Shown here: positions 1 through 8,574 of the stretch, one piece after another
How the letters are laid out: each line of letters opens with the position of its first letter
Position numbering within the stretch: the stretch's first letter is position 1
DNA from: a virus
Lineage: Duplodnaviria > Heunggongvirae > Uroviricota > Caudoviricetes
Virus record (IMG/VR): IMGVR_UViG_2693429733_000011
Span: 1 to 8,574 of that record
Reading direction: 5' to 3' (one strand)
Length of the DNA stretch: 8,574 nucleotides
Made by a program: the position numbers and the translations under genes
The notes under the pieces: generated by a model
Seen by the model: the letters and a program-made list of their open reading frames with translations, nothing else
Told to the model about the DNA's origin: nothing
Database searches by the model: none

Positions 1-21
1 CCTCAAAAACACCATCATACA

Positions 22-276
22 CTAAATCAGTAAGTTGGCAGCATCACCACTGTTCAGGGTGTCATACGGTGTTGCATCCATTGCCAGCACAGCGTCGCGA
101 ACCGGTGCCGGGATAACGCCCGGTGGTGGCTCATAGCGAACAAACTCCCTCCGTGGTTTCTGCCGGACGGAAGCGATCACCTCATCGTTAATTTCCGGTG
201 GCTGTGGTTCAGGTTGTTTGTCCGGTACCGCCGGCGCTGACGGTTCTTTTCGTTTAAACGGCCACATCAGATCCAC
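22..276 (-). CDS. hypothetical small proline-rich phage protein (84 aa) immediately downstream of the terminase large subunit
   Basis: ORF from the supplied track; its ATG at 276 overlaps the terL stop by 10 nt; codon usage looks host-like (CCG, CTG). I recognise no family. A head-tail joining or portal-adjacent gene would normally sit here. Confidence 0.35.
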
Positions 277-1886
277 TCCATAAAGTCATCAGAAATTACG
301 ATGGGCATTTCCATCGGGGCATAAGCAATCATCACAGAATCAGCCAGGTTTGGAGATTTCGTTCCGTCAGGTTGCTTATCCACAAGAATTTTTCCGGTGG
401 CATTTTTTGACCAGGTAGGTTGTGACAGCTCCATCAACAGCCGGTCTTTATTTTCCATTGTGCTGCTGATGGAAATAATCTCATCCGGGTCATACTCCAT
501 ACCCTGTAGTGCACGAAATGTATTGCGGAATAATTTGCGAAGATGCCACCACCCCTGGGCTTTGGCATTGACAAAAAAGTCCTTATTCAGACGAGCCGGT
601 TTACCATTATCACCGGGAACAGCTTCATTTTCAGGATGAAACACGCTCCCGCTGCCCCGGAATGGAGTGGCGGTGATTTGACAGATGCCCTCCGCTTCAC
701 GCAGTTCGTTGATAGCGCGCGCATCACCACGAACGCCAGCACCCAATCCGTCCTCATCAAAGCGAAACTCATCGGCACCAAAGTCATCGCACAGACCAAA
801 AACCTTAACCACAGAGTCATAGATGTCACTCCCCTTACCTGACCACTCCTGTACGTCATTCAGCAGGATGCCATAACGGAGCGAACAGGCGTTTTTATCC
901 CGCCCTTCGTCGGCGACATCCATTGCACCAAGCCGTTGGCCGCCGGGCTGAATGCCCAGTCTGATATGTGCATCAACCGCAGCCTGTACCCATTCTGAGG
1001 GGATCAGGATGCCTTCTGCTGATGCCTGGTAATTAAGATCCAGTTCCTGGGCAACGATGACTGGGTTATCAATTTTCTCGCACTCCTTGTGATACCACTC
1101 ATCGTCTTTACGCGGATCGCTACGCCAGTGAAACGTAAACACCGGGATTTTTCCACTGTGCCGCTTCTGTGCGAAGGGGTTGTTCATGCCGTTAACCGAT
1201 GAGAGATCGATACGACATCGGGTTGTCTGGGAAAGCGCGGCATCAATAAGTAATGGTCGCTGGAGAAAAGCAGCCTCATCCACAAAATAAAGGGTCGTAC
1301 GGTCACCACGACCGATATTATCGCCAGCCTCACCTTTGATAACCGCGCCAGTTTCAGGAAACTCAACACGCATATATGGCGCGTGCTTCTTCTCGCTCCA
1401 CGAACCGCGAAACTCTACAGGTAGAGTTTCCACGAACTTGCGCGCCTTCCAGAACAATGCTTTCGGGTCACCGGTGCTGTCGACGTATTCCTCTTTACGG
1501 GAGCCGAAACCGATAACCATTTCTTTGTTGAAGAGACAAAGCGAGCAGGCCAGTCCGATCGCGGTCCAACTGAGCCCCATTTCACGGGATTTTTCGGTAA
1601 TACCATTCTCCCGATTGCTCCAGCGTTCCATAATCCAGTGGATCCACTCCTCCTGCTTAGGGAAGAGTAAAAACGGAATGGTCACCGGCAGGCCATAATC
1701 AATATTACGCGGGTCCGTTGTCATGCCCCAGTCGATAATGAACTGAGCCGGGTTGGTACGGTAAAACTGTTTTAGTGCAGGCAATATTTCAGGATTCTGG
1801 CGAATGCGCTGTAGGCGTTCCATCCGCCATTCAAAAACCATCTGGTAATCAGGATGTTTAAAATCGAAGGGGAATGGTAACGGCAT
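267..1886 (-). CDS. terL: phage terminase large subunit (539 aa)
   Basis: Size and position directly downstream of a clear terminase small subunit; its start at 1884-1886 lies 2 nt downstream of the terS stop (1889-1891), i.e. the genes are adjacent; acidic C-terminal region consistent with a nuclease domain. Family assignment is by recall of the gene pair's layout, not by search. Confidence 0.7.
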
Positions 1887-1888
1887 AC

Positions 1889-2443
1889 TTAGCCCATCAT
1901 TTTTCTATACACCTCTGCGGCCTGCTCAGGCGTTAATTTGGTAATTTCTGTTCTGACTGGTCCTCCGTCAGCGCCAGTCACTTCATTTTTGACGTTGTCT
2001 TTAAACGCCTGAACAGAAACATGGCGCCCAAGCAACTCAAGGTTTTTAACCTTATCAGGCCATTTGATTTTCTTCAGAAGTGCGGCGCTATCTGCGGATA
2101 CCATCTCCACGACATCCATTCCTGATAGCGTTGTGCGCCATACCTTAGGCCAGTCTTTAATGGGCTTTAGCTCACCGTTTTGCAGGAGAATGTCGAGCAC
2201 ATCCATCTGGTCGATTTCAACCAATCTACGAAGAACATAAGCGGCATCTATACCTACCTCTTCGTTTCGCTCGGCTTTAAGCTCAGCAATGCGCTTTGCG
2301 ATATTAGCTTTTATTAGGTTTTTGCATCCTTGTACGGCGGCAGAATCCTCACTGTAACCCGCCCTGATGGCTGCTTGCGTGGCATTGAGATCTTTCAGGT
2401 ACTCACGGGCAAACAGCTCTTGTTTGTCGGTGAGCTTTGCCAT
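1889..2443 (-). CDS. terS: phage terminase small subunit, Terminase_2/P27-like with N-terminal HTH (184 aa)
   Basis: N-terminus [31 protein letters not shown] matches the hallmark small-terminase HTH motif (KQExFxxEYL...[12 protein letters not shown]); GGAG ribosome-binding site 8 nt upstream of the ATG; immediately precedes terL. Confidence 0.8.
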
Positions 2444-2470
2444 TATTTGTGCTCCGTTTATCCGTTAAAA

Positions 2471-2492
2471 GGGATATCAGTTAAGTTATCCC
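2471..2492 (-). terminator. weak hairpin (GGGATA-N10-TATCCC) followed by a short T-run on the minus strand, upstream of terS
   Basis: Read directly: plus-strand gggatatcagttaagttatccc; minus-strand copy is followed by TTTTAACGG. Stem is only 6 bp and AT-rich, so it may be a weak terminator or attenuator. Confidence 0.2.
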
Positions 2493-2523
2493 GTGTAGGG
2501 TATAAGCCATTATCAAGCCCACC

Positions 2524-2540
2524 AGTAGATGGACTTTGTA
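2524..2540 (-). repeat. copy A of a 17-bp motif (minus strand ACAAAGTCCATCTACTG), upstream of terS
   Basis: Read directly: plus cagtagatggactttgt; 15 of 17 positions identical to the copy at 3543-3559, same orientation. Confidence 0.5.
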
Positions 2541-2566
2541 ATGAAGAGCCGTTGTGAAAGTAGCTC

Positions 2567-2779
2567 TCAGGTTGTCATTTTTTCCCTTTTCTGCCTACCT
2601 GCCCACTGTTTTGCAATGTACAGGCAGTCATCGAAAACTCGGCCTTTTCTGCTGGCTTGTGAACAACGGCGGTAATGCTCCACCGCCATGTCAGCGCCAG
2701 TCATAGCCGCGTTCTGGTCGTACCCAAGCTTTATTAACTCGGTTGTTACATTTTTATGTATGAAATCAATCGGAGTCAT
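2567..2779 (-). CDS. hypothetical small protein (70 aa), translationally coupled to the upstream Rha-like gene
   Basis: ORF from the track; its ATG (2777-2779) overlaps the stop of the upstream gene (2776-2778) in an ATGA arrangement. No family recognised. Confidence 0.4.
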   Translation of the reverse strand: MTPIDFIHKNVTTELIKLGYDQNAAMTGADMAVEHYRRCSQASRKGRVFDDCLYIAKQWAGRQKREKMTT

Positions 2780-3372
2780 GCTGGTTTACCATCAGGGAAA
2801 TCCCCCATGTCACATAGCTTGAACTGAATCAGATCCTTCACAAGCTGCTCAGCCTTTTTAATGGCCTTCTTCTCTTTCTTCCGACGAGTCATGAGAGCGC
2901 TACCTGCTTGACCGTGCATTTCAAATGAGAACTTCTCAGCAGCCGCGACACGGTTTTGCATTTCGCTGATTGCCATATCGGTCAGGCCAGAGAAATCGAG
3001 GAGGTTAATGTCCTTCCCGCCCTCAAGCTCCGTCATGTGGTCATACACCTGCGCCTGAAGCTCATAGCTGTAGCTCATTGCCATGAGGCAAGCTTCACGC
3101 TTGGGAAAATTGCAAATATCCCTCTCCACAACACCACCTGTTCCGTTGATATAGGTATCAGTTGCAAAAAATTTTGCAGCTGCATCCCCGAGGACCCTGG
3201 GTACTTTCTTCATGAAACTGCGGTGTTCGAGTTTGCGATATTTCTTACAGGGGAACGCAAGCCCCTCCGCCTCCGCTTTGGATTTCCGATCAGCATTAAT
3301 GTAATCCACCATCTCAAGACTGCTCATGGTCGGGTATTCGCCAGAAGGAAGAACGGTTAATGATTTGTTCAT
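2776..3372 (-). CDS. putative phage regulatory protein, Rha/antirepressor-like (198 aa)
   Basis: Central segment FATDTYINGTGG...CLMAMSYSYELQ loosely resembles the Rha (ORF6N-type) domain pattern; AGGA ribosome-binding site about 9 nt upstream of the ATG; sits in the moron slot between lysis and packaging genes. Assignment is tentative, by recall only. Confidence 0.35.
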   Translation of the reverse strand: MNKSLTVLPSGEYPTMSSLEMVDYINADRKSKAEAEGLAFPCKKYRKLEHRSFMKKVPRVLGDAAAKFFATDTYINGTGGVVERDICNFPKREACLMAMSYSYELQAQVYDHMTELEGGKDINLLDFSGLTDMAISEMQNRVAAAEKFSFEMHGQAGSALMTRRKKEKKAIKKAEQLVKDLIQFKLCDMGDFPDGKPA

Positions 3373-3513
3373 GTCGGTATTTCCTTTAGAAAGTTGAGCC
3401 TGTTCGCACAGAAAAGCCGTCCCCGAGAGGTCCTCACCTATACGGCAGTTCTCAGGCTCAGCTTTCTGAAAGACTCGGGATTGTTACGCGCTGCGATGCG
3501 CGGTTTACTGCGG

Positions 3514-3541
3514 ACATATAAAAGCCCCGCAAGTGCGAGGC
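3514..3541 (-). terminator. intrinsic terminator downstream of Rz/Rz1 (minus strand)
   Basis: Read directly: minus-strand GCCTCGCACTTGCGGGGC forms a GC-rich stem with one G-U pair, followed by TTTTATAT. Confidence 0.4.
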
Positions 3542-3542
3542 T

Positions 3543-3559
3543 CATTAAATGGACTTTGT
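3543..3559 (-). repeat. copy B of the 17-bp motif (minus strand ACAAAGTCCATTTAATG), between the Rz stop and the terminator
   Basis: Read directly: plus cattaaatggactttgt; 15 of 17 identical to the copy at 2524-2540. Confidence 0.5.
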
Positions 3560-3574
3560 GATTTGCAAAAAAAT

Positions 3575-4042
3575 TTATTTCAGGCACTGAGTCCTGATGT
3601 ACTCCTGAAGCATTCTCAATGCTGTCTGGTCGCTGATGATTCCGTCCCGGATACCGAGAACGTTTCGTCCAGCAACTGGAGAGAGTTCGACGGTGGCATC
3701 ATTGCCCATGCCGGAGGCGCTGGAGGTTTCGGCTGAGGATGGCACAGGGCATTTTCCTTTGACGAGCACCCGACCACCATTATCAAGCTTGCGCCGAAGA
3801 GCATCATTTTCAGCTTTCGCATCAGCTAACTCCTTCGTGTATTTAGCATCGAGTGCATCAGCATCACGCTGGCGCTGCTGCATGTCAGTAATGGTTGCGT
3901 TCGCCAGCTTCAGTTCTCTTGCGTTTTTGTCGCGCTGCTCTTTGTAGGTAATGGCGTTATCACGGTAATGATTAACAGCCCATGACAGGCGGACGATGAT
4001 GCAGATAACCAGAGCGGAGATAATCGCGGTGACTCTGCTCAT
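3575..4042 (-). CDS. Rz: Rz i-spanin (inner-membrane spanin subunit)
   Basis: N-terminus [17 protein letters not shown]...[14 protein letters not shown]...[13 protein letters not shown] closely matches lambda-type Rz as I recall it; the ATG at 4040-4042 overlaps the endolysin stop. The track's start at 4054 is a GTG, 12 nt upstream. Confidence 0.85.
3616..3822 (-). CDS. Rz1: Rz1 o-spanin lipoprotein, embedded in the +1 frame of Rz
   Basis: MRKLKMML...VVGC lipobox followed by a proline-rich stretch ([11 protein letters not shown]), and fully nested inside Rz, as in lambda Rz1. Confidence 0.75.
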
Positions 4043-4529
4043 TGCTGCCCCCACAAACAGACTTCACGCTCAATCTCACGACGGGTCATCAGCCCTTTCC
4101 ATTGCTTACCGCCAGCATATGTCCAGCGACGTAGCTGGTCACATGCGCCTTTGATATCGCCCTGGTTTATTTTGCGAAGAAGCGTCGATGTTCTGAAATT
4201 GCCAGCGCCCACGTTGTAAACGAACGAGTAAAGAGCGCCGCGCGTTGTTTCCGGTATATCGACTTTGATGTACGGGTTAATTTGTCTGGCGACAGTGGCA
4301 AGGTCTTTATTCAGGAGAGCTTTGCATTCTGCTTCGGTATACGTTTTACCNNNNNNNNNNNNNNNNNNNNNNNNNNNNNNNNNNNNNNNNNNNNGATATC
4401 TTTGTATGGTATGTAGCTGACACCTTCCAGACCATCGTTACCACCTGGGCCAGTGATTAACACAGATGCTATAGCAACAGCCCCGCCACCAATAGCAACT
4501 GCAACAGCCTTGCGTAATGATGGCGACAT
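4039..4529 (-). CDS. R: SAR endolysin (phage-21 R-like lysozyme), interrupted by an assembly gap
   Basis: N-terminal Gly/Ala-rich signal-anchor-release domain ([45 protein letters not shown]); after the N-run the in-frame translation resumes [16 protein letters not shown]...[18 protein letters not shown], typical of T4-lysozyme-like phage endolysins. The start overlaps the holin stop and the stop overlaps the Rz start. Confidence 0.85.
4351..4394. other. run of 44 N (assembly gap or masked sequence) inside the endolysin gene
   Basis: Read directly. Both flanks are codon-aligned to the endolysin frame, but 44 is not a multiple of 3, so the true length differs; by recalled homology about 17 codons are missing. 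Confidence 0.95.
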
Positions 4530-4744
4530 TATTCACCTCTCGCAGCCTTACGCTTGTCTTCTCTGATTTTGAAGTACAGATTTGTCAGATAAGTCAGGAA
4601 GCCCAGAACCAGACTCCCCAGTACACCAATCGCAGCCCACTGTGACGGACTGACCTGATCAAGCCACTGTAAAAACCAGTAGCCGGCACTGCCTGCGGAG
4701 GTGCCGTAGGCAATGCCCGTTGAAATTTTGTCCATGGATTTCAT
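4529..4744 (-). CDS. S: class II pinholin, phage-21 S21 / EssD-type (71 aa) with dual-start MKSM motif
   Basis: [71 protein letters not shown] is near-identical to S21/EssD as I recall it; strong ribosome-binding site GGAGGTGA upstream. Confidence 0.9.
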
Positions 4745-4804
4745 AGCCTCACCTCCGCAAATAACGGATGGCGTAGTTTTACACTGAGAAATGAAAGGGA
4801 TTTG

Positions 4805-4828
4805 AAAAGAAAAAACCGCAAAAGCGGG
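4805..4828 (-). terminator. weak terminator-like hairpin (CCGC-TTTT-GCGG) plus long U-run, about 60 nt upstream of the holin start
   Basis: Read directly: minus-strand CGCCCGCTTTTGCGGTTTTTTCTTTTC. The stem is only 4-5 bp, so termination strength is uncertain. Confidence 0.3.
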
Positions 4829-4904
4829 CGAAACGATATATACAGTAAGGAAAGCACTCTATCCAACAAACCACTCACAGTTAATCGGAATAAAAGCAGA
4901 GTGC

Positions 4905-4977
4905 TTATGAATGATCGCCTGCCCGAAGGTTAGTATTTCTGCACAGCAATTTTGCAAAAAAAAGCGATCATTCATAA
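4905..4977. repeat. perfect 14-bp inverted repeat (TTATGAATGATCGC / GCGATCATTCATAA) separated by 45 nt
   Basis: Read directly at 4905-4918 and 4964-4977; lies in the non-coding slot between the tRNA array and the holin. Confidence 0.8.
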
Positions 4978-5036
4978 CTTAAACGTCTTTCAGTCACTCC
5001 GGGATTTCCCATCATCGCAGACTGAAAGACTCTAAC

Positions 5037-5111
<75 letters not shown>

Positions 5112-5114
5112 ATA

Positions 5115-5189
<75 letters not shown>

Positions 5190-5191
5190 AC

Positions 5192-5268
5192 TGGACCGCC
5201 ACCGGGGACTCGAACCTCGCACACTCAACTTAAAGGGTTGACGCTCTTTCCTGATGAGCTAGTGGCGG
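5192..5268 (-). tRNA. tRNA-like gene, anticodon UUU (Lys) by position, with non-canonical features
   Basis: Acceptor CCGCCAC/GTGGCGG, D-arm GCTC/GAGC, anticodon stem TCAAC/GTTGA with loop CCTTTAA (C at position 33 instead of U), T-loop TTCGAGT with one A-C mismatch in the T-stem, CCA encoded. Confidence 0.45.
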
Positions 5269-5269
5269 T

Positions 5270-5345
5270 TGGTGGCCCTTGCTGGATTTGAACCAGCGAC
5301 CTGGCGATTATGAGTCGCTCGCTCTCACCACTGAGCTAAAGGGCC
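5270..5345 (-). tRNA. tRNA with CAU anticodon, most like ileX-type tRNA-Ile2 (lysidine), alternatively elongator tRNA-Met
   Basis: Acceptor GGCCCTT/AAGGGCC, anticodon loop CTCATAA, T-loop TTCAAAT; high similarity to E. coli ileX as I recall it. CCA encoded. Confidence 0.75.
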
Positions 5346-5450
5346 GGGCGCAGGATAATAACGTTACGAAATCAATGTTGCAAGCATTCAAAAATCACCC
5401 TTATCTCCTCCACCAGCGCATTCACCATGTCTATCCGGGATAAGTGGCAC

Positions 5451-5480
5451 AAAAAACCCGCTTGTGGGCGGGTTTTGTTT
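5451..5480 (-). terminator. intrinsic terminator (bidirectional hairpin), candidate tR'-like late terminator downstream of the Q-like gene
   Basis: Read directly: minus-strand AAAACCCGCCCACAAGCGGGTTTTTTGTG; the stem CCCGC/GCGGG is flanked by an A-run and a T-run, so it could terminate on either strand. Confidence 0.6.
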
Positions 5481-5527
5481 GCTTTTGCCATCACGTACAA
5501 AATCGGCAAAATATCAGATTTGCATGA

Positions 5528-5556
5528 AATATATGCCTTTCAATCTACTTTTGCAA
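5528..5556 (-). promoter_or_regulatory. sigma70 promoter, candidate late promoter (pR'-like), overlapping the 3' end of the Q-like gene
   Basis: Read directly on the minus strand: -35 TTGCAA (5556-5551), 17-nt spacer, -10 TATATT (5533-5528). The predicted start near 5521 would give a transcript of about 70 nt ending at the terminator at 5451-5480, analogous to the lambda 6S / pR'-tR' unit. Confidence 0.45.
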
Positions 5557-6234
5557 CACTTTGCTTTGAAAATGCCGTCTTTTTTTTGAACGTGTTCTCA
5601 TTACAAACAATAAAGCCTCACTATCCAGTCGGTGAAAAATGTGTTTCATTGCAACCCAGTGACGAGTAAATGTTTTGGACCAGTTTTTAGTTGTCACTCC
5701 CGCCAGTAATGCCAGCTCCTGGTATTCATAACCTTCCCCACCAAAAAGTTCTGCTTTTACTGCCTGCGCCGCCAGCCAGATTAATTTTTTCAGGCGTTCC
5801 TGCGTTTTCCCTGCAATTTTTCTGGTACCGGATTGAGCATTAAATTCATTCCACGCCCACTGTGTTATCGCGATCTGATATTCCCAACAAATACTCCCGC
5901 TGTAACACCACAACAACCAGGCTTTATGATGTTCTTCAAGAGACAGAACAGCCCGCCGCCACGATGATGTCGAAAACCCAACCGGACTGACCAGAGGAAT
6001 TGACGTCCCCTTCGCCAGCGATTGCTTTCCCGGGATTGGTGGATTATCCCGCGTTATCATTTTTCCAGTCACTTCATCGCGGTACCGGATTTTTTTACGC
6101 CTGTAACGCCCTGTATCGAACATGGCATTCTCTTGCCAGGCTTCAAGCTGACCTTTTGTTGCCCCACTCAAATCAGCGGTGGCGATAATGAGCTGCTCAC
6201 GCACAAACTGTAAATACTGGTTATTCATGCGCAC
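5545..6234 (-). CDS. putative late-gene antiterminator, Q-like (229 aa)
   Basis: Call rests on synteny only: directly downstream of rusA and directly upstream of a promoter plus terminator, a tRNA array and the lysis cassette. I do not recognise the sequence as lambda Q. Confidence 0.4.
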   Translation of the reverse strand: MRMNNQYLQFVREQLIIATADLSGATKGQLEAWQENAMFDTGRYRRKKIRYRDEVTGKMITRDNPPIPGKQSLAKGTSIPLVSPVGFSTSSWRRAVLSLEEHHKAWLLWCYSGSICWEYQIAITQWAWNEFNAQSGTRKIAGKTQERLKKLIWLAAQAVKAELFGGEGYEYQELALLAGVTTKNWSKTFTRHWVAMKHIFHRLDSEALLFVMRTRSKKRRHFQSKVLQK

Positions 6235-6590
6235 CCCAGTTCTGTGATTTTTATCCCCAGCCGCCCACCAGGAACGAGCTGACCGCGCACAATATTGATT
6301 TCATCAAACTGCTCGTCGTCTATAAGTAGTCCAGCATGCGTCAGCGCATCCAGCGGTGCCTTCAGGATATTGTCCAGGTCACGACGGCGCTTATCCGGTG
6401 GCTCTGCAATAATCTTTATCGCCAGCCTTCCGGACAGGTTTAATTTCAGTCGCTGCTGGCGAACAATTAGCGCCACATCACGGCGATAACGCTTTCCGGC
6501 TTCCGAGATGAAATACGTATTGCCATGACGTCGCCAGTAGGTATTCACCGTCGGCGGGTAAGGCAAAACAAATTCTATGCGTTCAGTCAT
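6225..6590 (-). CDS. rusA: RusA-family Holliday junction resolvase (121 aa)
   Basis: Motifs LPYPPTVNTYWRR, DKRRRDLDNILKAPLDAL and GGRLGIKITE match the RusA signature (PPSxNxYYR ... DRRRRDLDN ... DAL ... GGRL). Confidence 0.85.
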   Translation of the reverse strand: MTERIEFVLPYPPTVNTYWRRHGNTYFISEAGKRYRRDVALIVRQQRLKLNLSGRLAIKIIAEPPDKRRRDLDNILKAPLDALTHAGLLIDDEQFDEINIVRGQLVPGGRLGIKITELGCA

Positions 6591-7649
6591 TCATGCTTTC
6601 CACTTCAGGACACCCGAATTTCTCGCGTGCATTAAAAAACGAATCAGCAACAACAGCTGGCTGCCGTGTTTTTCTTCAAAATCTTTTACCCCGGCGTGCA
6701 GTTCGTTATGACATTTACGGCACAGCGGAATAACAAACAAATCATCAGCCTTTGTTCCCATCCCTCCCAGTCCATGACCAATGATGTGATGCGGATCATC
6801 TGCCTGATTGCCACACGTCATGCATTTCTGCGTTTTTACCCAGCGCGTGTATACGGGCATCTCTTCCCGTTGTGGTTTCTGGCGCTGGAGATACTGAGCC
6901 GGAGAATCCGGATCAACGGCAATGCTGACCACCGTCTTTTCCTGTGGTGGATTCTGTTGCTGGTGGGCGTGAGGCAACGGCGCAATATTTTTTGTGCGCT
7001 GCTTCAGTATGCTGGTGGCGGTCTGCGCTCCCGGTACGATATCGCTTTCGCGGTATACTGAGCGGATTTTTTCTACCGGTAATCCCAGCGAACGACGTAA
7101 TACTGCCTCCGGTAGCGCGTCCGCCACCTGATTGCAGAGCGCCCACCAGGATAATTCAGCCAGCGATAATTCCCGCTCCTGTGTGCCATTCATTGCATGG
7201 CGTATGACGTCAATCATCCATGCTGACAGGTTTTGATGAGCAAGTTGCCCGAGTGATTCGGAGGTCTGGTCACGCAGCTGGTTGTCGCAGTGCCAGCACA
7301 ACACCATCGCACCGGTACCATAACGATGTATGACGATTTCGCTGTGATGATAGTCACCATGAGGCCACTGGCAGGATTTAACGTGGCGTAACAGCCAGTC
7401 AGACAGTGCACCAGCACCGCCAGCAGCACGAATCACACGCTCATCGCTGAAAAATGGCAGTAATGATTTGTCCTCCGCCAGCGGCTGGCGAACGGCAGGA
7501 ACGACCCCGGACGGCAGATTACGCATGCTTTTCGGTTCCGGCTCCACCAGTACCCGGGTATTGTGGAATACCGGCATGGATTCACGGCCCGGCTTAACGA
7601 TCACCAGCCCGAGTTCCGGTACCAGAACAGGTCGAAGTAATACCCGCAC
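6591..7649 (-). CDS. prophage nin-region protein with a C-terminal HNH-type zinc-finger motif (DUF968/YdfU-like, 352 aa)
   Basis: C-terminus CMTCGNQADDPHHIIGHGLGG...LCRKCHNELH shows a CxxC...HH...CxxCHxxLH arrangement; a second Cys/His cluster (CQWPHGDYHH...CWHCDN) lies further upstream; sits immediately upstream of rusA as DUF968 genes do in lambdoid prophages. The likely start is GTG at 7649 with a GGAGG site upstream; an ATG at 7577 is the alternative. Confidence 0.5.
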   Translation of the reverse strand: MRVLLRPVLVPELGLVIVKPGRESMPVFHNTRVLVEPEPKSMRNLPSGVVPAVRQPLAEDKSLLPFFSDERVIRAAGGAGALSDWLLRHVKSCQWPHGDYHHSEIVIHRYGTGAMVLCWHCDNQLRDQTSESLGQLAHQNLSAWMIDVIRHAMNGTQERELSLAELSWWALCNQVADALPEAVLRRSLGLPVEKIRSVYRESDIVPGAQTATSILKQRTKNIAPLPHAHQQQNPPQEKTVVSIAVDPDSPAQYLQRQKPQREEMPVYTRWVKTQKCMTCGNQADDPHHIIGHGLGGMGTKADDLFVIPLCRKCHNELHAGVKDFEEKHGSQLLLLIRFLMHARNSGVLKWKA

Positions 7650-7650
7650 G

Positions 7651-7929
7651 TTACCTCCAGATGCGTTGCTGGAATGTGCGGGACGGACGCGGTGGGCGTT
7701 CAGAGTAAGGAAGCCTGACGGAGATTATCCAGTGACGATAATCGAGGCTGAGGGCTTTCTTAATCTCGTATCCGTGTCTGCGGTAGCACTGAATTAGCCA
7801 CTCGGCCTGTTCTTCAGTGCATGGGTCATGCTGGAACCAGTCAGATTTGAAAGTGCGGGAACGCCGCCCGTGCCTGCTGGCAAAGACGGCAGAATCATCA
7901 GAATTGTGTAATTTGGTATCGTGCGCCAT
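7651..7929 (-). CDS. hypothetical nin-region protein (about 92 aa from the ATG at 7929; the track's 110-aa version starts at a TTG)
   Basis: ORF ends 1 nt before the DUF968 start (operon-like packing); no family recognised. Confidence 0.35.
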   Translation of the reverse strand: MAHDTKLHNSDDSAVFASRHGRRSRTFKSDWFQHDPCTEEQAEWLIQCYRRHGYEIKKALSLDYRHWIISVRLPYSERPPRPSRTFQQRIWR

Positions 7930-7998
7930 CGGTTGTCTCTGCTGGCGCAGCAGGTGCCAGTTGTTCAGGCTGGCGTGCGGCAATATTGTCTCTGATTT

Positions 7999-8029
7999 CT
8001 GTTGTCGTCAACAGGCAGCGTGCTATCAT
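7999..8029 (+). promoter_or_regulatory. putative parDE promoter with an overlapping palindromic operator
   Basis: Read directly: inverted repeat CTGTTG-tcgt-CAACAG (7999-8014) overlaps a -35-like TTGTCG; -10-like TATCAT at 8024-8029; parD ATG at 8065 is preceded by a GAGG ribosome-binding site. Confidence 0.3.
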
Positions 8030-8064
8030 CGAATAGTGTTCTATCCTACTCCTTGAGGTTTACC

Positions 8065-8322
8065 ATGCGTACAACCCAACAATTCAGCATTACATTAACT
8101 AACGAGATGGCTGACATGGTGCGCGCCCGTGTGGCTTCCGGTGCCTATGCTTCAGAAAGCGAGGTCATTCGTGAAGGGCTTCGCGCACTGAATGAGCGCG
8201 ATAAAGCAATCGAAGCGTGGTTAACGCATTCAGCCGCCCCCTCTCTTGATTCTATCCGCGAAAATCCAAACAACGGACGCTCCATTTCACAGGTTCGCGC
8301 CGCGATTCGATCCGGAAAGTAA
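8065..8322 (+). CDS. parD: ParD-family type II antitoxin (ribbon-helix-helix, 85 aa)
   Basis: SITLTNEMADMVRARVASGAYASESEVIREGLRAL matches the ParD (COG3609) signature (SxxLTxx...SGxYxSASEVxRxxLRxL); GAGG 6 nt upstream of the ATG. The track ORF 8002-8322 contains it with an upstream extension. Confidence 0.8.
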   Translation: MRTTQQFSITLTNEMADMVRARVASGAYASESEVIREGLRALNERDKAIEAWLTHSAAPSLDSIRENPNNGRSISQVRAAIRSGK

Positions 8323-8327
8323 TCTGC

Positions 8328-8574
8328 ATGACATATGAAGTCATCATTACTCCTGAGGCCGAACAACAAATAATCAACCTGCACAGATATATAACTGAGA
8401 AAGCAGGGAACGTCATTGCTGACAATTATGCCAATGCACTTCTTGATTATCTTGATGGGTTTTCTACATTCCCGCATCGGGGCAATAAACGCGATGATAT
8501 TCGCCAGGGGATGCGGGTAACTCATTTCCGCCACAGAACGATTATTGCTTTTGCCGTTGATGACAATAAAGTTT
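8328..8574 (+). CDS. parE: ParE/RelE-family toxin, 3' end truncated by the window edge (82 aa visible)
   Basis: My translation from the ATG at 8328: MTYEVIITPEAEQQIINLHRYITEKAGNVIADNYANALLDYLDGFSTFPHRGNKRDDIRQGMRVTHFRHRTIIAFAVDDNKV; starts 5 nt after the parD stop, the typical antitoxin-toxin order and spacing. Absent from the track because no stop codon falls inside the window. Confidence 0.75.
   Translation, partial: MTYEVIITPEAEQQIINLHRYITEKAGNVIADNYANALLDYLDGFSTFPHRGNKRDDIRQGMRVTHFRHRTIIAFAVDDNKV

Follow-up and report, generated by a model that had tools for sequence, protein, structure and literature searches.

The window analysed here, a stretch of 8,574 nucleotides (nt) comprising positions 1 to 8,574 of the Caudoviricetes record IMGVR_UViG_2693429733_000011, contains a slot of 292 nt between the gene for tRNA-Gly(UCC) and the gene for a P21-type holin (5036..4745, minus strand). 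All genes around the slot are located on the minus strand, which is the late strand, and we conclude with high confidence that the slot encodes a functional late-strand RNA structure. According to our preferred interpretation, which is held with moderate confidence, this structure is a discrete non-coding RNA that forms the 3' trailer of a tRNA operon, and the terminator at its end insulates the lysis genes from the tRNA promoter pT. A first-pass annotation of the window had placed the slot between tRNA genes and a holin gene, downstream of the antiterminator gene Q, and had noted a perfect inverted repeat of 14 base pairs (bp), a weak hairpin with a U-run, and no convincing open reading frame (ORF). 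The flanks were found as described (four tRNA genes, P21-type holin, Q), and the other observations hold as well, as detailed below. Among the functions that had been offered, that of a small RNA (sRNA) is best supported, as the structure is conserved, covaries, is specific to the late strand and possesses its own terminator.

The arms of the inverted repeat (4905-4918, TTATGAATGATCGC, and 4964-4977, GCGATCATTCATAA) are 100% complementary and are separated by a 45-nt spacer. In 3000 dinucleotide-preserving shuffles of positions 4745-5036, perfect inverted repeats with spacers of up to 100 nt never attained 14 bp; the longest had 12 bp, and P for a longest repeat of at least 11 bp was 0.005. 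Additional inverted repeats of 11 bp (4985-4995 / 5020-5030) and 9 bp (4852-4860 / 4898-4906) are present in the slot. The predicted free energy of the 292-nt minus-strand RNA is -92.5 kcal/mol (z = -4.8), a stability that was equalled by none of 200 shuffles, whereas the plus-strand fold is weaker (z = -2.9). The minus-strand fold comprises three hairpins in a row (hpA, hpB, and hpC, in this order) and the terminator after them; a 25-nt linker separates hpC from the weak terminator hairpin. Folded singly, the three hairpins have z values between -4.2 and -4.8.

Hairpin hpA (4985..5030, minus strand; -22.5 kcal/mol, z = -4.8) consists of a 13-bp lower stem, an asymmetric internal loop, and a 4-bp upper stem. 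A kink-turn is composed of a C-helix, a 3-nt bulge, tandem sheared G·A/A·G pairs, and an NC-helix. The internal loop of hpA, GAUGA (5016-5012) opposite GA (4999-4998), fits this consensus: it reads GC|GAU|GA|UGGG with CCCG|GA|GU, which corresponds to a C=G closing pair followed by a bulge of 3 nt, G·A and A·G in tandem, and U·G. The first collection of loci was keyed on the hpA loop itself, and the invariance of the loop within that set is thus circular. A set of 131 instances (17 distinct) was collected with a key outside the loop, namely the 3' end of tRNA-Gly plus the lower stem of hpA. In this set, the G·A / A·G core shows zero variation, and changes in the loop are confined to positions L1, -1b (C to U, with the pair kept), and 3n (G to U); the latter yields U·U, as in box C/D. 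The stem of hpA carries compensatory changes from UA to CG and from CG to UA, each in either direction. A chance-level Rfam match to a C/D-box snoRNA overlaps the hpA part of the slot, including the loop. The likeness of hpA to a kink-turn (box C/D-like) is one of sequence pattern and predicted fold, and E. coli is not known to have an L7Ae-type K-turn-binding protein.

Hairpin hpB (4905..4977, minus strand; -26.3 kcal/mol, z = -4.8) is a three-way junction, whose basal stem of about 15 bp is formed by the 14-bp inverted repeat. It encloses an inner hairpin (4960-4953 / 4943-4936; UUUUUGCA-AAAUUGCUG-UGCAGAAA) and a C(UUCG)G mini-hairpin at 4929-4922. Five pairs of the basal stem and one pair of the inner stem have changed on both sides. 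Hairpin hpC (4854..4904, minus strand; -20.7 kcal/mol, z = -4.2) contains a GCACUCUG/UAGAGUGC stem and an inner CCGA/UUGG stem, and its apical loop is conserved as UAAC-N-G(G/A)GUGGUUU. Both sides have changed at three pairs, and G·U/A·U alternations occur in addition. Beyond chance, no complement of the hpC loop was found elsewhere in the window.

Conservation of the fold was assessed in an alignment of 34 distinct sequences. The 60 pairs of the 7 helices are 98.4% paired; if the 3' partners are slid by 1-3 columns, pairing drops to 39-47%. Changes on both sides were found at 11 of the 60 pairs, and the covariation score of 0.226, as compared to 0.148 ± 0.005 for shuffled alignments, was reached by none of 500 of these. 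The covariation across homologous prophages that the first-pass annotation had proposed as a check is thus present, and the inverted repeat, which might have turned out to be unconserved in related phages, is kept there with compensatory changes. Furthermore, every helix contains G·U pairs, which are either invariant or alternate with A·U or G·C; on the opposite strand, they would be A·C mismatches. These pairs fit the late strand only, and it follows that selection acts on the late-strand RNA and not on a DNA palindrome. Structure is also kept in loci of distant sequence: L037 has retained an hpB-like hairpin despite a largely different sequence, and copies of hpC that stand alone have yet other stem sequences (GCACAUUAC/GUAGUGUGC).

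The position of the structure suggests that it belongs to the tRNA operon. The array consists of four genes (5037..5345, minus strand), which were identified with ARAGORN, with the Rfam tRNA model (44-72 bits), and from the RefSeq annotation of an identical locus. Its last gene is tRNA-Gly(UCC) (5111-5037), and 6 nt separate the CCA end of this tRNA from hpA. In 107 of 126 instances, the hpA motif begins 18 nt past the end of tRNA-Gly(UCC). Upstream of the array lies pT (5355..5383, minus strand; TTGCAA-17-TATTAT), a candidate sigma-70 promoter of the tRNA operon with the GC-rich discriminator CCTGCGCCC. It is almost identical to the element that is annotated in phage 933W as "pT putative tRNA promoter" and precedes ileZ there. 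Divergent loci keep a -35 hexamer TTGCAx, a spacing of 17 nt, a -10 hexamer TATyAT, and a GC-rich discriminator. Conservation of these elements alongside a differing spacer sequence is what a working stable-RNA promoter would be expected to show, and pT therefore appears to be such a promoter. A pT-type promoter was also found at L248 3083-3111.

The structure is followed by an intrinsic terminator (4805..4827, minus strand), in which a GC-rich stem-loop and a U-run are located on the transcribed strand. It comprises CCGC (4827-4824), UUUU, GCGG (4819-4816), and U6CU4 (4815-4805), and represents a weak allele; it corresponds to the weak hairpin with U-run mentioned above. In most homologues, a 6-bp terminator GCCCGC/GCGGGC is found, and the stems at that position have mostly 6-9 bp. 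A recognisable terminator, located 13-44 nt beyond hpC, is present in 43 of the 48 distinct variants that contain hpA; in the subset in which both hpA and hpB were detected, the fraction is 39/44. At least five unrelated terminator sequences occur after hpC. The terminator is thus kept despite unrelated sequences and is mostly missing beside a lone hpC, and is therefore selected for its position in the tRNA-linked form. The first downstream ORF usually codes for a P21-type holin; in the remaining loci, its product belongs to one of four or more further holin-like families that are unrelated, and the distance is similar. As at least five unrelated holin types are found downstream, the RNA travels with the tRNA and not with the lysis genes.

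With regard to the stem at 4816-4819, the alleles GCCCGC/GCGGGC, GCCCGC/GCGGGU, CCGC/GCGG (in the window), and GCGUUU mutants were observed. The strength of the terminator allele may set the leak of pT transcription into the lysis genes.

From these sequence features we infer an RNA that is transcribed from pT, released as a stable molecule, and active in trans. In lysogens, transcription would begin at pT (5383..5355), and after Q action at the late promoter pR'. Ordinary polymerase would pass the four tRNAs, hpA, hpB, and hpC, and would stop at the terminator 4827..4805, which would keep pT transcripts out of the holin and endolysin genes. Processing of the tRNA 3' end would then free the trailer as a separate RNA of about 210-230 nt from the late (minus) strand. 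The long stems and the terminator hairpin should make this RNA stable. A partner, be it protein or RNA, would be likely to contact the conserved unpaired parts, one in each hairpin: the kink-turn-like loop in hpA, the AAAUUGCUG loop in hpB, and the UAAC-N-GGGUGGUUU loop in hpC.

Non-tRNA RNAs are known from other tRNA operons: the tyrT operon encodes rttR, and the tRNA cluster of phage T4 gives rise to two stable RNAs, C and D (species 1 and 2). In the case of the glyW-cysT-leuZ operon, Lalaouna et al. (2015) reportedly described the trailer RNA 3'ETS-leuZ, a short, Hfq-dependent sponge. Like these trailer RNAs, the element is a non-tRNA RNA after the last tRNA and before the operon terminator, and would be transcribed together with the tRNAs and freed by their processing; the location after tRNA-Gly, with the conserved pT upstream and a terminator downstream, appears to be of the 3'ETS type. 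In contrast, it has no homology to 3'ETS-leuZ, rttR, or the T4 RNAs, and is far more structured than 3'ETS-leuZ. The tRNA unit of 933W (annotation of Plunkett et al. 1999) has a nearly identical pT and first tRNA and is likewise closed by a terminator before the next late genes. However, the terminator of 933W is located 13 nt after the last tRNA (argO), whereas in the window about 190 nt of structured RNA lie in between.

A search of the slot against Rfam found no matching family at E<=1 or at E<=10; cmscan of positions 4745-5040 at E<=10 gave three chance-level matches only (HtrA thermometer, ceN44, and STnc540, with 13-15 bits). The Rfam/Infernal search that had been suggested in the first-pass annotation thus identified no described family. 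The families of prophage sRNAs in Rfam, STnc100 (RF02076), AgvB (RF02702), AsxR (RF02703), Esr41 (RF02676), and IsrK/IsrJ, do not match the slot. Full-text searches for conserved sequences of the element gave no matches, and literature searches on prophage tRNA-trailer sRNAs and on leaders of Stx2f phages yielded nothing specific and no description of the element.

The slot between pR' and the lysis genes is known to hold sRNA genes. In prophages of enterohaemorrhagic and enteropathogenic E. coli (EHEC and EPEC), it contains those of AsxR and AgvB (Tree et al. 2014, PMC4104026), and also those of the PasA/C/D sRNAs (PMC8550237; bioRxiv 10.64898/2026.05.13.724894), to none of which the element bears any resemblance. 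AsxR/AgvB, PasA/C/D, STnc100, and the element are alike in being terminator-ended and non-coding and in lying between Q/pR' and the lysis cassette; PasA and PasC lie immediately upstream of a class II holin. However, PasA/C and AsxR are short RNAs of 51-85 nt whose orientation is antisense or convergent relative to late transcription, whereas the element has about 200 nt, is sense and tRNA-linked, and comprises several hairpins. Identity with PasA/PasC was rejected: there is no similarity to PasA of E2348/69, which opposes the late-gene strand, and a blastn comparison (word size 7) with the EPEC PasA intergenic region gave a match for the holin only (75%). A covariance model of the element had no matches in the 933W, EPEC, and K-12 loci. 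An IpeX/nmpC remnant was likewise excluded, as DLP12 of K-12 shares the holin only with the window. The put RNAs of HK022 and HK639 are also phage-encoded multi-hairpin RNAs, and HK639 carries both types. They act on the phage's own transcription and directly follow the early promoters, whereas the element is located in the late leader before a terminator that put-type action would defeat. When the covariance model was applied to the whole HK639 genome, only the late-leader copy was found, and no similarity to the annotated putL-like RNA (34187-34312).

The element is widespread in E. coli. Matches to the 292 nt were obtained in 540 of the 5426 complete E. coli genomes (~10%), exclusively on chromosomes, mostly with 95-99% identity and with at most five copies per genome. 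Four named coliphages match at 98-99% identity, and HK639 at 76% over the hairpins. The hpA motif is present on more than 119 IMG/VR contigs; in a scan of one genome per species, the exact motif was found in E. coli and Shigella flexneri only. In E. coli FDAARGOS_943, which has an identical locus, RefSeq annotates the tRNAs and nothing in the slot. The number of copies per phage is one, and in all oriented loci examined, the element has the late-strand orientation. The 14-mer GGGTGGTTTGTTGG, when used as a key for collecting loci, gave mostly chance matches, which were screened with the covariance model.

The three hairpins are separable modules. tRNA-Gly is followed by hpB and hpC without hpA in L212, L211, L194, L190, and L178, and hpB plus hpC occur without a tRNA in L188, L132, and L199. 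In L173, L139, L231, L238, and L240, hpC alone is located about 12 nt after a pR'-like promoter with tR' terminator and 20-40 nt before the first late ORF. It stands alone in late-strand intergenic DNA with no recognisable pR'/tR' upstream in L228, L234, L242, L243, and L246, and it follows Rz in L168. The stand-alone hpC of L173 is found downstream of a Q from the Pfam family of the window's Q (Q82-family), and L139, L231, L238, and L240 share the promoter-terminator leader sequence of L173. A recurrent first late ORF (MAWLG/MAWQG...) is preceded by hpC in L173, L238, and L242; the 221-residue product of the first late ORF of L173 has no Pfam match. Stand-alone hpC copies match neither named phages nor E. 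coli genomes, and the hosts of L173, L139, L231, L238, and L240 are other than E. coli. The nearest named Q protein originates from an Aeromonas phage (58% identity).

Several findings weigh against our preferred interpretation. The ends, stability, and abundance of the RNA are deduced from its sequence. Some Thr-Gly arrays, including those of the Stx2f type, have no obvious pT. The terminator in the window is weak, with a 4-bp stem and -6.6 kcal/mol, and lies under the 5-pair threshold of the scanner. Most of the double changes separate the window-type from the HK639-type clade and thus represent few independent events; additional independent signals come from one pair of the hpB inner hairpin, which reads UA, CG, or UG among members of one clade, from the hpB-like hairpin of L037, and from the stem sequences of stand-alone hpC. 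No classical seed region is evident, as conservation is lacking in the single-stranded linker ahead of the terminator. Finally, 12 of the 16 distinct stand-alone copies of hpC have no terminator, and a lone hpC that follows tR' and precedes the first late ORF by 20-40 nt fits a cis-acting leader better than an sRNA.

The latter finding favours the main rival explanation, which we consider less probable than the trailer RNA. In this case, the hairpins would be a cis-acting processing or stability element with RNase III or RNase E sites that part the tRNAs from the lysis mRNA, and a nuclease processing site of this kind had also been offered in the first-pass annotation. In a variant of this model, hpA would be the 5'-terminal stem-loop after excision of the tRNA and would shield the lysis mRNA from 5'-end-dependent decay. 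The short distance between the CCA end and hpA is compatible with such a role, as is the occurrence of the element ahead of any holin type and that of a lone hpC, without terminator, directly after tR' and before the first late gene. The succession of lower stem, asymmetric loop, and upper stem in hpA also resembles the RNase III sites of phage T7. However, neither a stabiliser nor a site of double-stranded RNA needs an invariant loop sequence of 13-19 nt, and the basal stems, with their 11-15 bp, fall short of the approximately 20 bp that are typical of RNase III substrates. Moreover, in the tRNA-linked form a terminator has been selectively kept between the hairpins and the lysis genes.

A different role for the trailer is conceivable, although we consider it doubtful: instead of an ordinary base-pairing sRNA, it may be a protein-binding structured RNA that is made together with the phage tRNAs, captures or decoys a host factor, and thus protects the tRNAs or the late transcript or tunes lysis. 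The host factor could be an RNase, an RNA chaperone, or a defence nuclease that targets tRNAs and is countered by the variable tRNA set. The kink-turn hairpin, the three-way junction, and the conserved G/U-rich loop would then serve as binding features, and hpC would be an independent module that is reused in late leaders beyond E. coli.

The first-pass annotation had also considered an attenuator of lysis timing. Such a riboswitch-like switch would regulate the terminator 4827..4805, and as a consequence holin expression, through alternative folds of the hairpins. The terminator is indeed located about 60 nt upstream of the holin, its strength depends on the allele (6-bp, 4-bp, and mutated stems), and the upstream RNA is highly structured. 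However, an alternative fold in which the terminator pairs with hpC or with the linker is neither predicted nor conserved; minimum-energy and centroid folds keep all hairpins. The terminators are unrelated between clades whereas the hairpins are conserved, and no riboswitch of Rfam matches. Q-modified polymerase reads through terminators and can be expected to ignore this one as well. Together with the variety of holin types downstream, these findings make the attenuator very unlikely as a specific mechanism.

We attach still less credence to a neutral or DNA-level origin of the slot, be it the scar of a lost cargo, decayed tRNA pseudogenes, a palindrome resembling a miniature inverted-repeat transposable element, or a protein-binding palindrome. 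In favour of such an origin, the hairpins are tRNA-sized and packed like tRNA genes, hpA and the variable-loop/T-arm region of tRNA-Gly have GAUGAUG..GGG..CCCG in common, and L011 fuses the 5' half of tRNA-Gly to hpA. However, compensatory and G·U changes keep the pairs on one strand only, the element is present in a single copy per phage and in late-strand orientation in the oriented loci, and it coexists with stx2f in phage phi467. Two specific candidates were rejected. An origin of hpA from tRNA-Gly is based on a similarity that is not significant, as 404 of 2000 shuffles score as well. Identity with a tRNA or pseudogene does not hold either, since ARAGORN and the Rfam tRNA model find the four tRNAs only and match none of the hairpins. 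The L011 fusion (1909-1990) is the result of a deletion. Its junction is located at the CAGyCU / GAUGAUG sequence that tRNA-Gly and hpA have in common, in the middle of hpA, and both were destroyed.

Least credible of all is a small protein encoded by a 38-codon ORF (4975..4859, late strand) or a 43-codon plus-strand ORF (4802..4933): the 38-codon frame, which ends with GWFVG, is found in both clades and the plus-strand ORF is annotated as hypothetical in vB_EcoS-689R5 and 606R7, but the 38-codon ORF starts with ATG, TTG, or no start codon and has no Shine-Dalgarno (SD) sequence ahead, many variants are frameshifted by 1-nt indels or by the length of a U-run, which varies from 7 to 9, the frame of HK639 is interrupted by a stop, L025 and L052 contain no ORF, the clades differ by two offsetting indels that leave the middle third out of register with the aligned bases, and the variable columns are distributed over codon positions 1, 2, and 3 as 15, 24, and 25, such that position 2 is as variable as position 3. 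A protein-coding slot was thus rejected, as neither a conserved reading frame nor a coding substitution pattern exists, and the statement that the slot contains no convincing ORF stands.

In phages that carry genes for Shiga toxin (Stx), the first-pass annotation had assigned the position of the slot to stx. This is correct for 933W, where the order is tRNAs (pT, ileZ-argN-argO), terminator, stx2, ..., S. It does not apply to phi467, a Stx2f phage (PMC5189129, PMC7366253). This Stx2f-converting phage carries the element, and its gene order is Q, stx2fAB, tRNA-Thr, tRNA-Gly, element, holin (L249 6001-8195); stx2f is thus located upstream of the tRNAs. No pT-like promoter is evident before tRNA-Thr of phi467. 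Because the element coexists with stx2f in this phage, it is not a scar from the loss of stx. The related suggestion of a scar from cargo excision has no support, as the element is under structural selection.

In HK639, the late leader begins with an isrJ-like pR' RNA with tR', which is followed by tRNA-Asn, a tRNA-Gly remnant, and the element with its terminator. Downstream of the element come STnc100, which likewise has a terminator of its own, a further terminator, and the holin. STnc100 lies directly downstream of the element's terminator in HK639 (L247 44780-44985) and in L188 (854-1060). In both, the element and STnc100 form tandem terminator-ended non-coding RNA units ahead of the holin.

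The element is an RNA structure without an Rfam entry that occurs in about one tenth of the complete E. coli genomes, in Shigella, and in a Stx2f-converting phage, where it lies between the toxin-tRNA region and the lysis genes. The pR' moron slot, a known hot spot for regulatory RNAs in pathogenic E. coli, gains a type of occupant that is sense, tRNA-linked, and composed of several hairpins. The element further offers a test case for three questions: do the tRNA operons of phages export RNAs with a regulatory or protective role, do motifs of the kink-turn type have partners in E. coli, and how do prophages insulate constitutive tRNA transcription from lethal lysis genes?

The remaining features of the region are as follows. 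The Q antiterminator (6234..5545, minus strand) matches PF06323 with 302 bits. A consensus scan detected a candidate late promoter pR' (5528..5556, minus strand; TTGCAA-17-TATATT), which overlaps the 3' end of Q. Its position matches that of the annotated pR' of 933W. A tR'-type intrinsic terminator (5447..5482, minus strand), which consists of the inverted repeat I2 and a U-run, would end a short pR' leader RNA. For this leader, sub-threshold Rfam matches to isrK/isrJ were obtained (5451-5524, minus strand; 22-25 bits); isrK and isrJ are pR' RNAs of the Salmonella Gifsy phages. The equivalent leader of HK639 has an isrJ-like match of 34.6 bits. A Chi site (GCTGGTGG) is located at 5410-5417 on the late strand, between tR' and pT.

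The genes that precede tRNA-Gly in the array, all identified with ARAGORN on the minus strand, code for a tRNA with the anticodon CAU (ileZ-like Ile2/Met; 5345-5270), tRNA-Lys(UUU) (5268-5192), and tRNA-Thr(UGU) (5189-5116). CAU-Lys-Thr-Gly is the commonest array. Among otherwise similar prophages, CAU, Thr, and Gly are constant and the second slot (5192-5268 in the window) is hypervariable. It is occupied by Lys(UUU), Arg(UCU), Phe(AAA or GAA), Leu(UAA or CAG), a UUA-anticodon "suppressor" call, or tRNAs with an odd anticodon loop. This variability may reflect an arms race with anticodon nucleases.

The P21-type class II holin (4744..4529, minus strand) matches PF04971, P21 holin S. Its translation-initiation region forms a hairpin outside the RNA unit (4690..4765, minus strand; -29 kcal/mol, z = -3.5) that is based on the inverted repeat I4 (4694-4703 / 4750-4759). 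The SD sequence (GGAGGUG) and both starts of the holin (MKSM dual start) are buried in this hairpin by pairing with holin codons ~14-17. It is probably the structure for start choice and translation control that is known for class II holins. The endolysin gene contains a run of 44 N at 4351-4394 (an assembly gap or masking), because of which the endolysin ORF is split in the ORF list.

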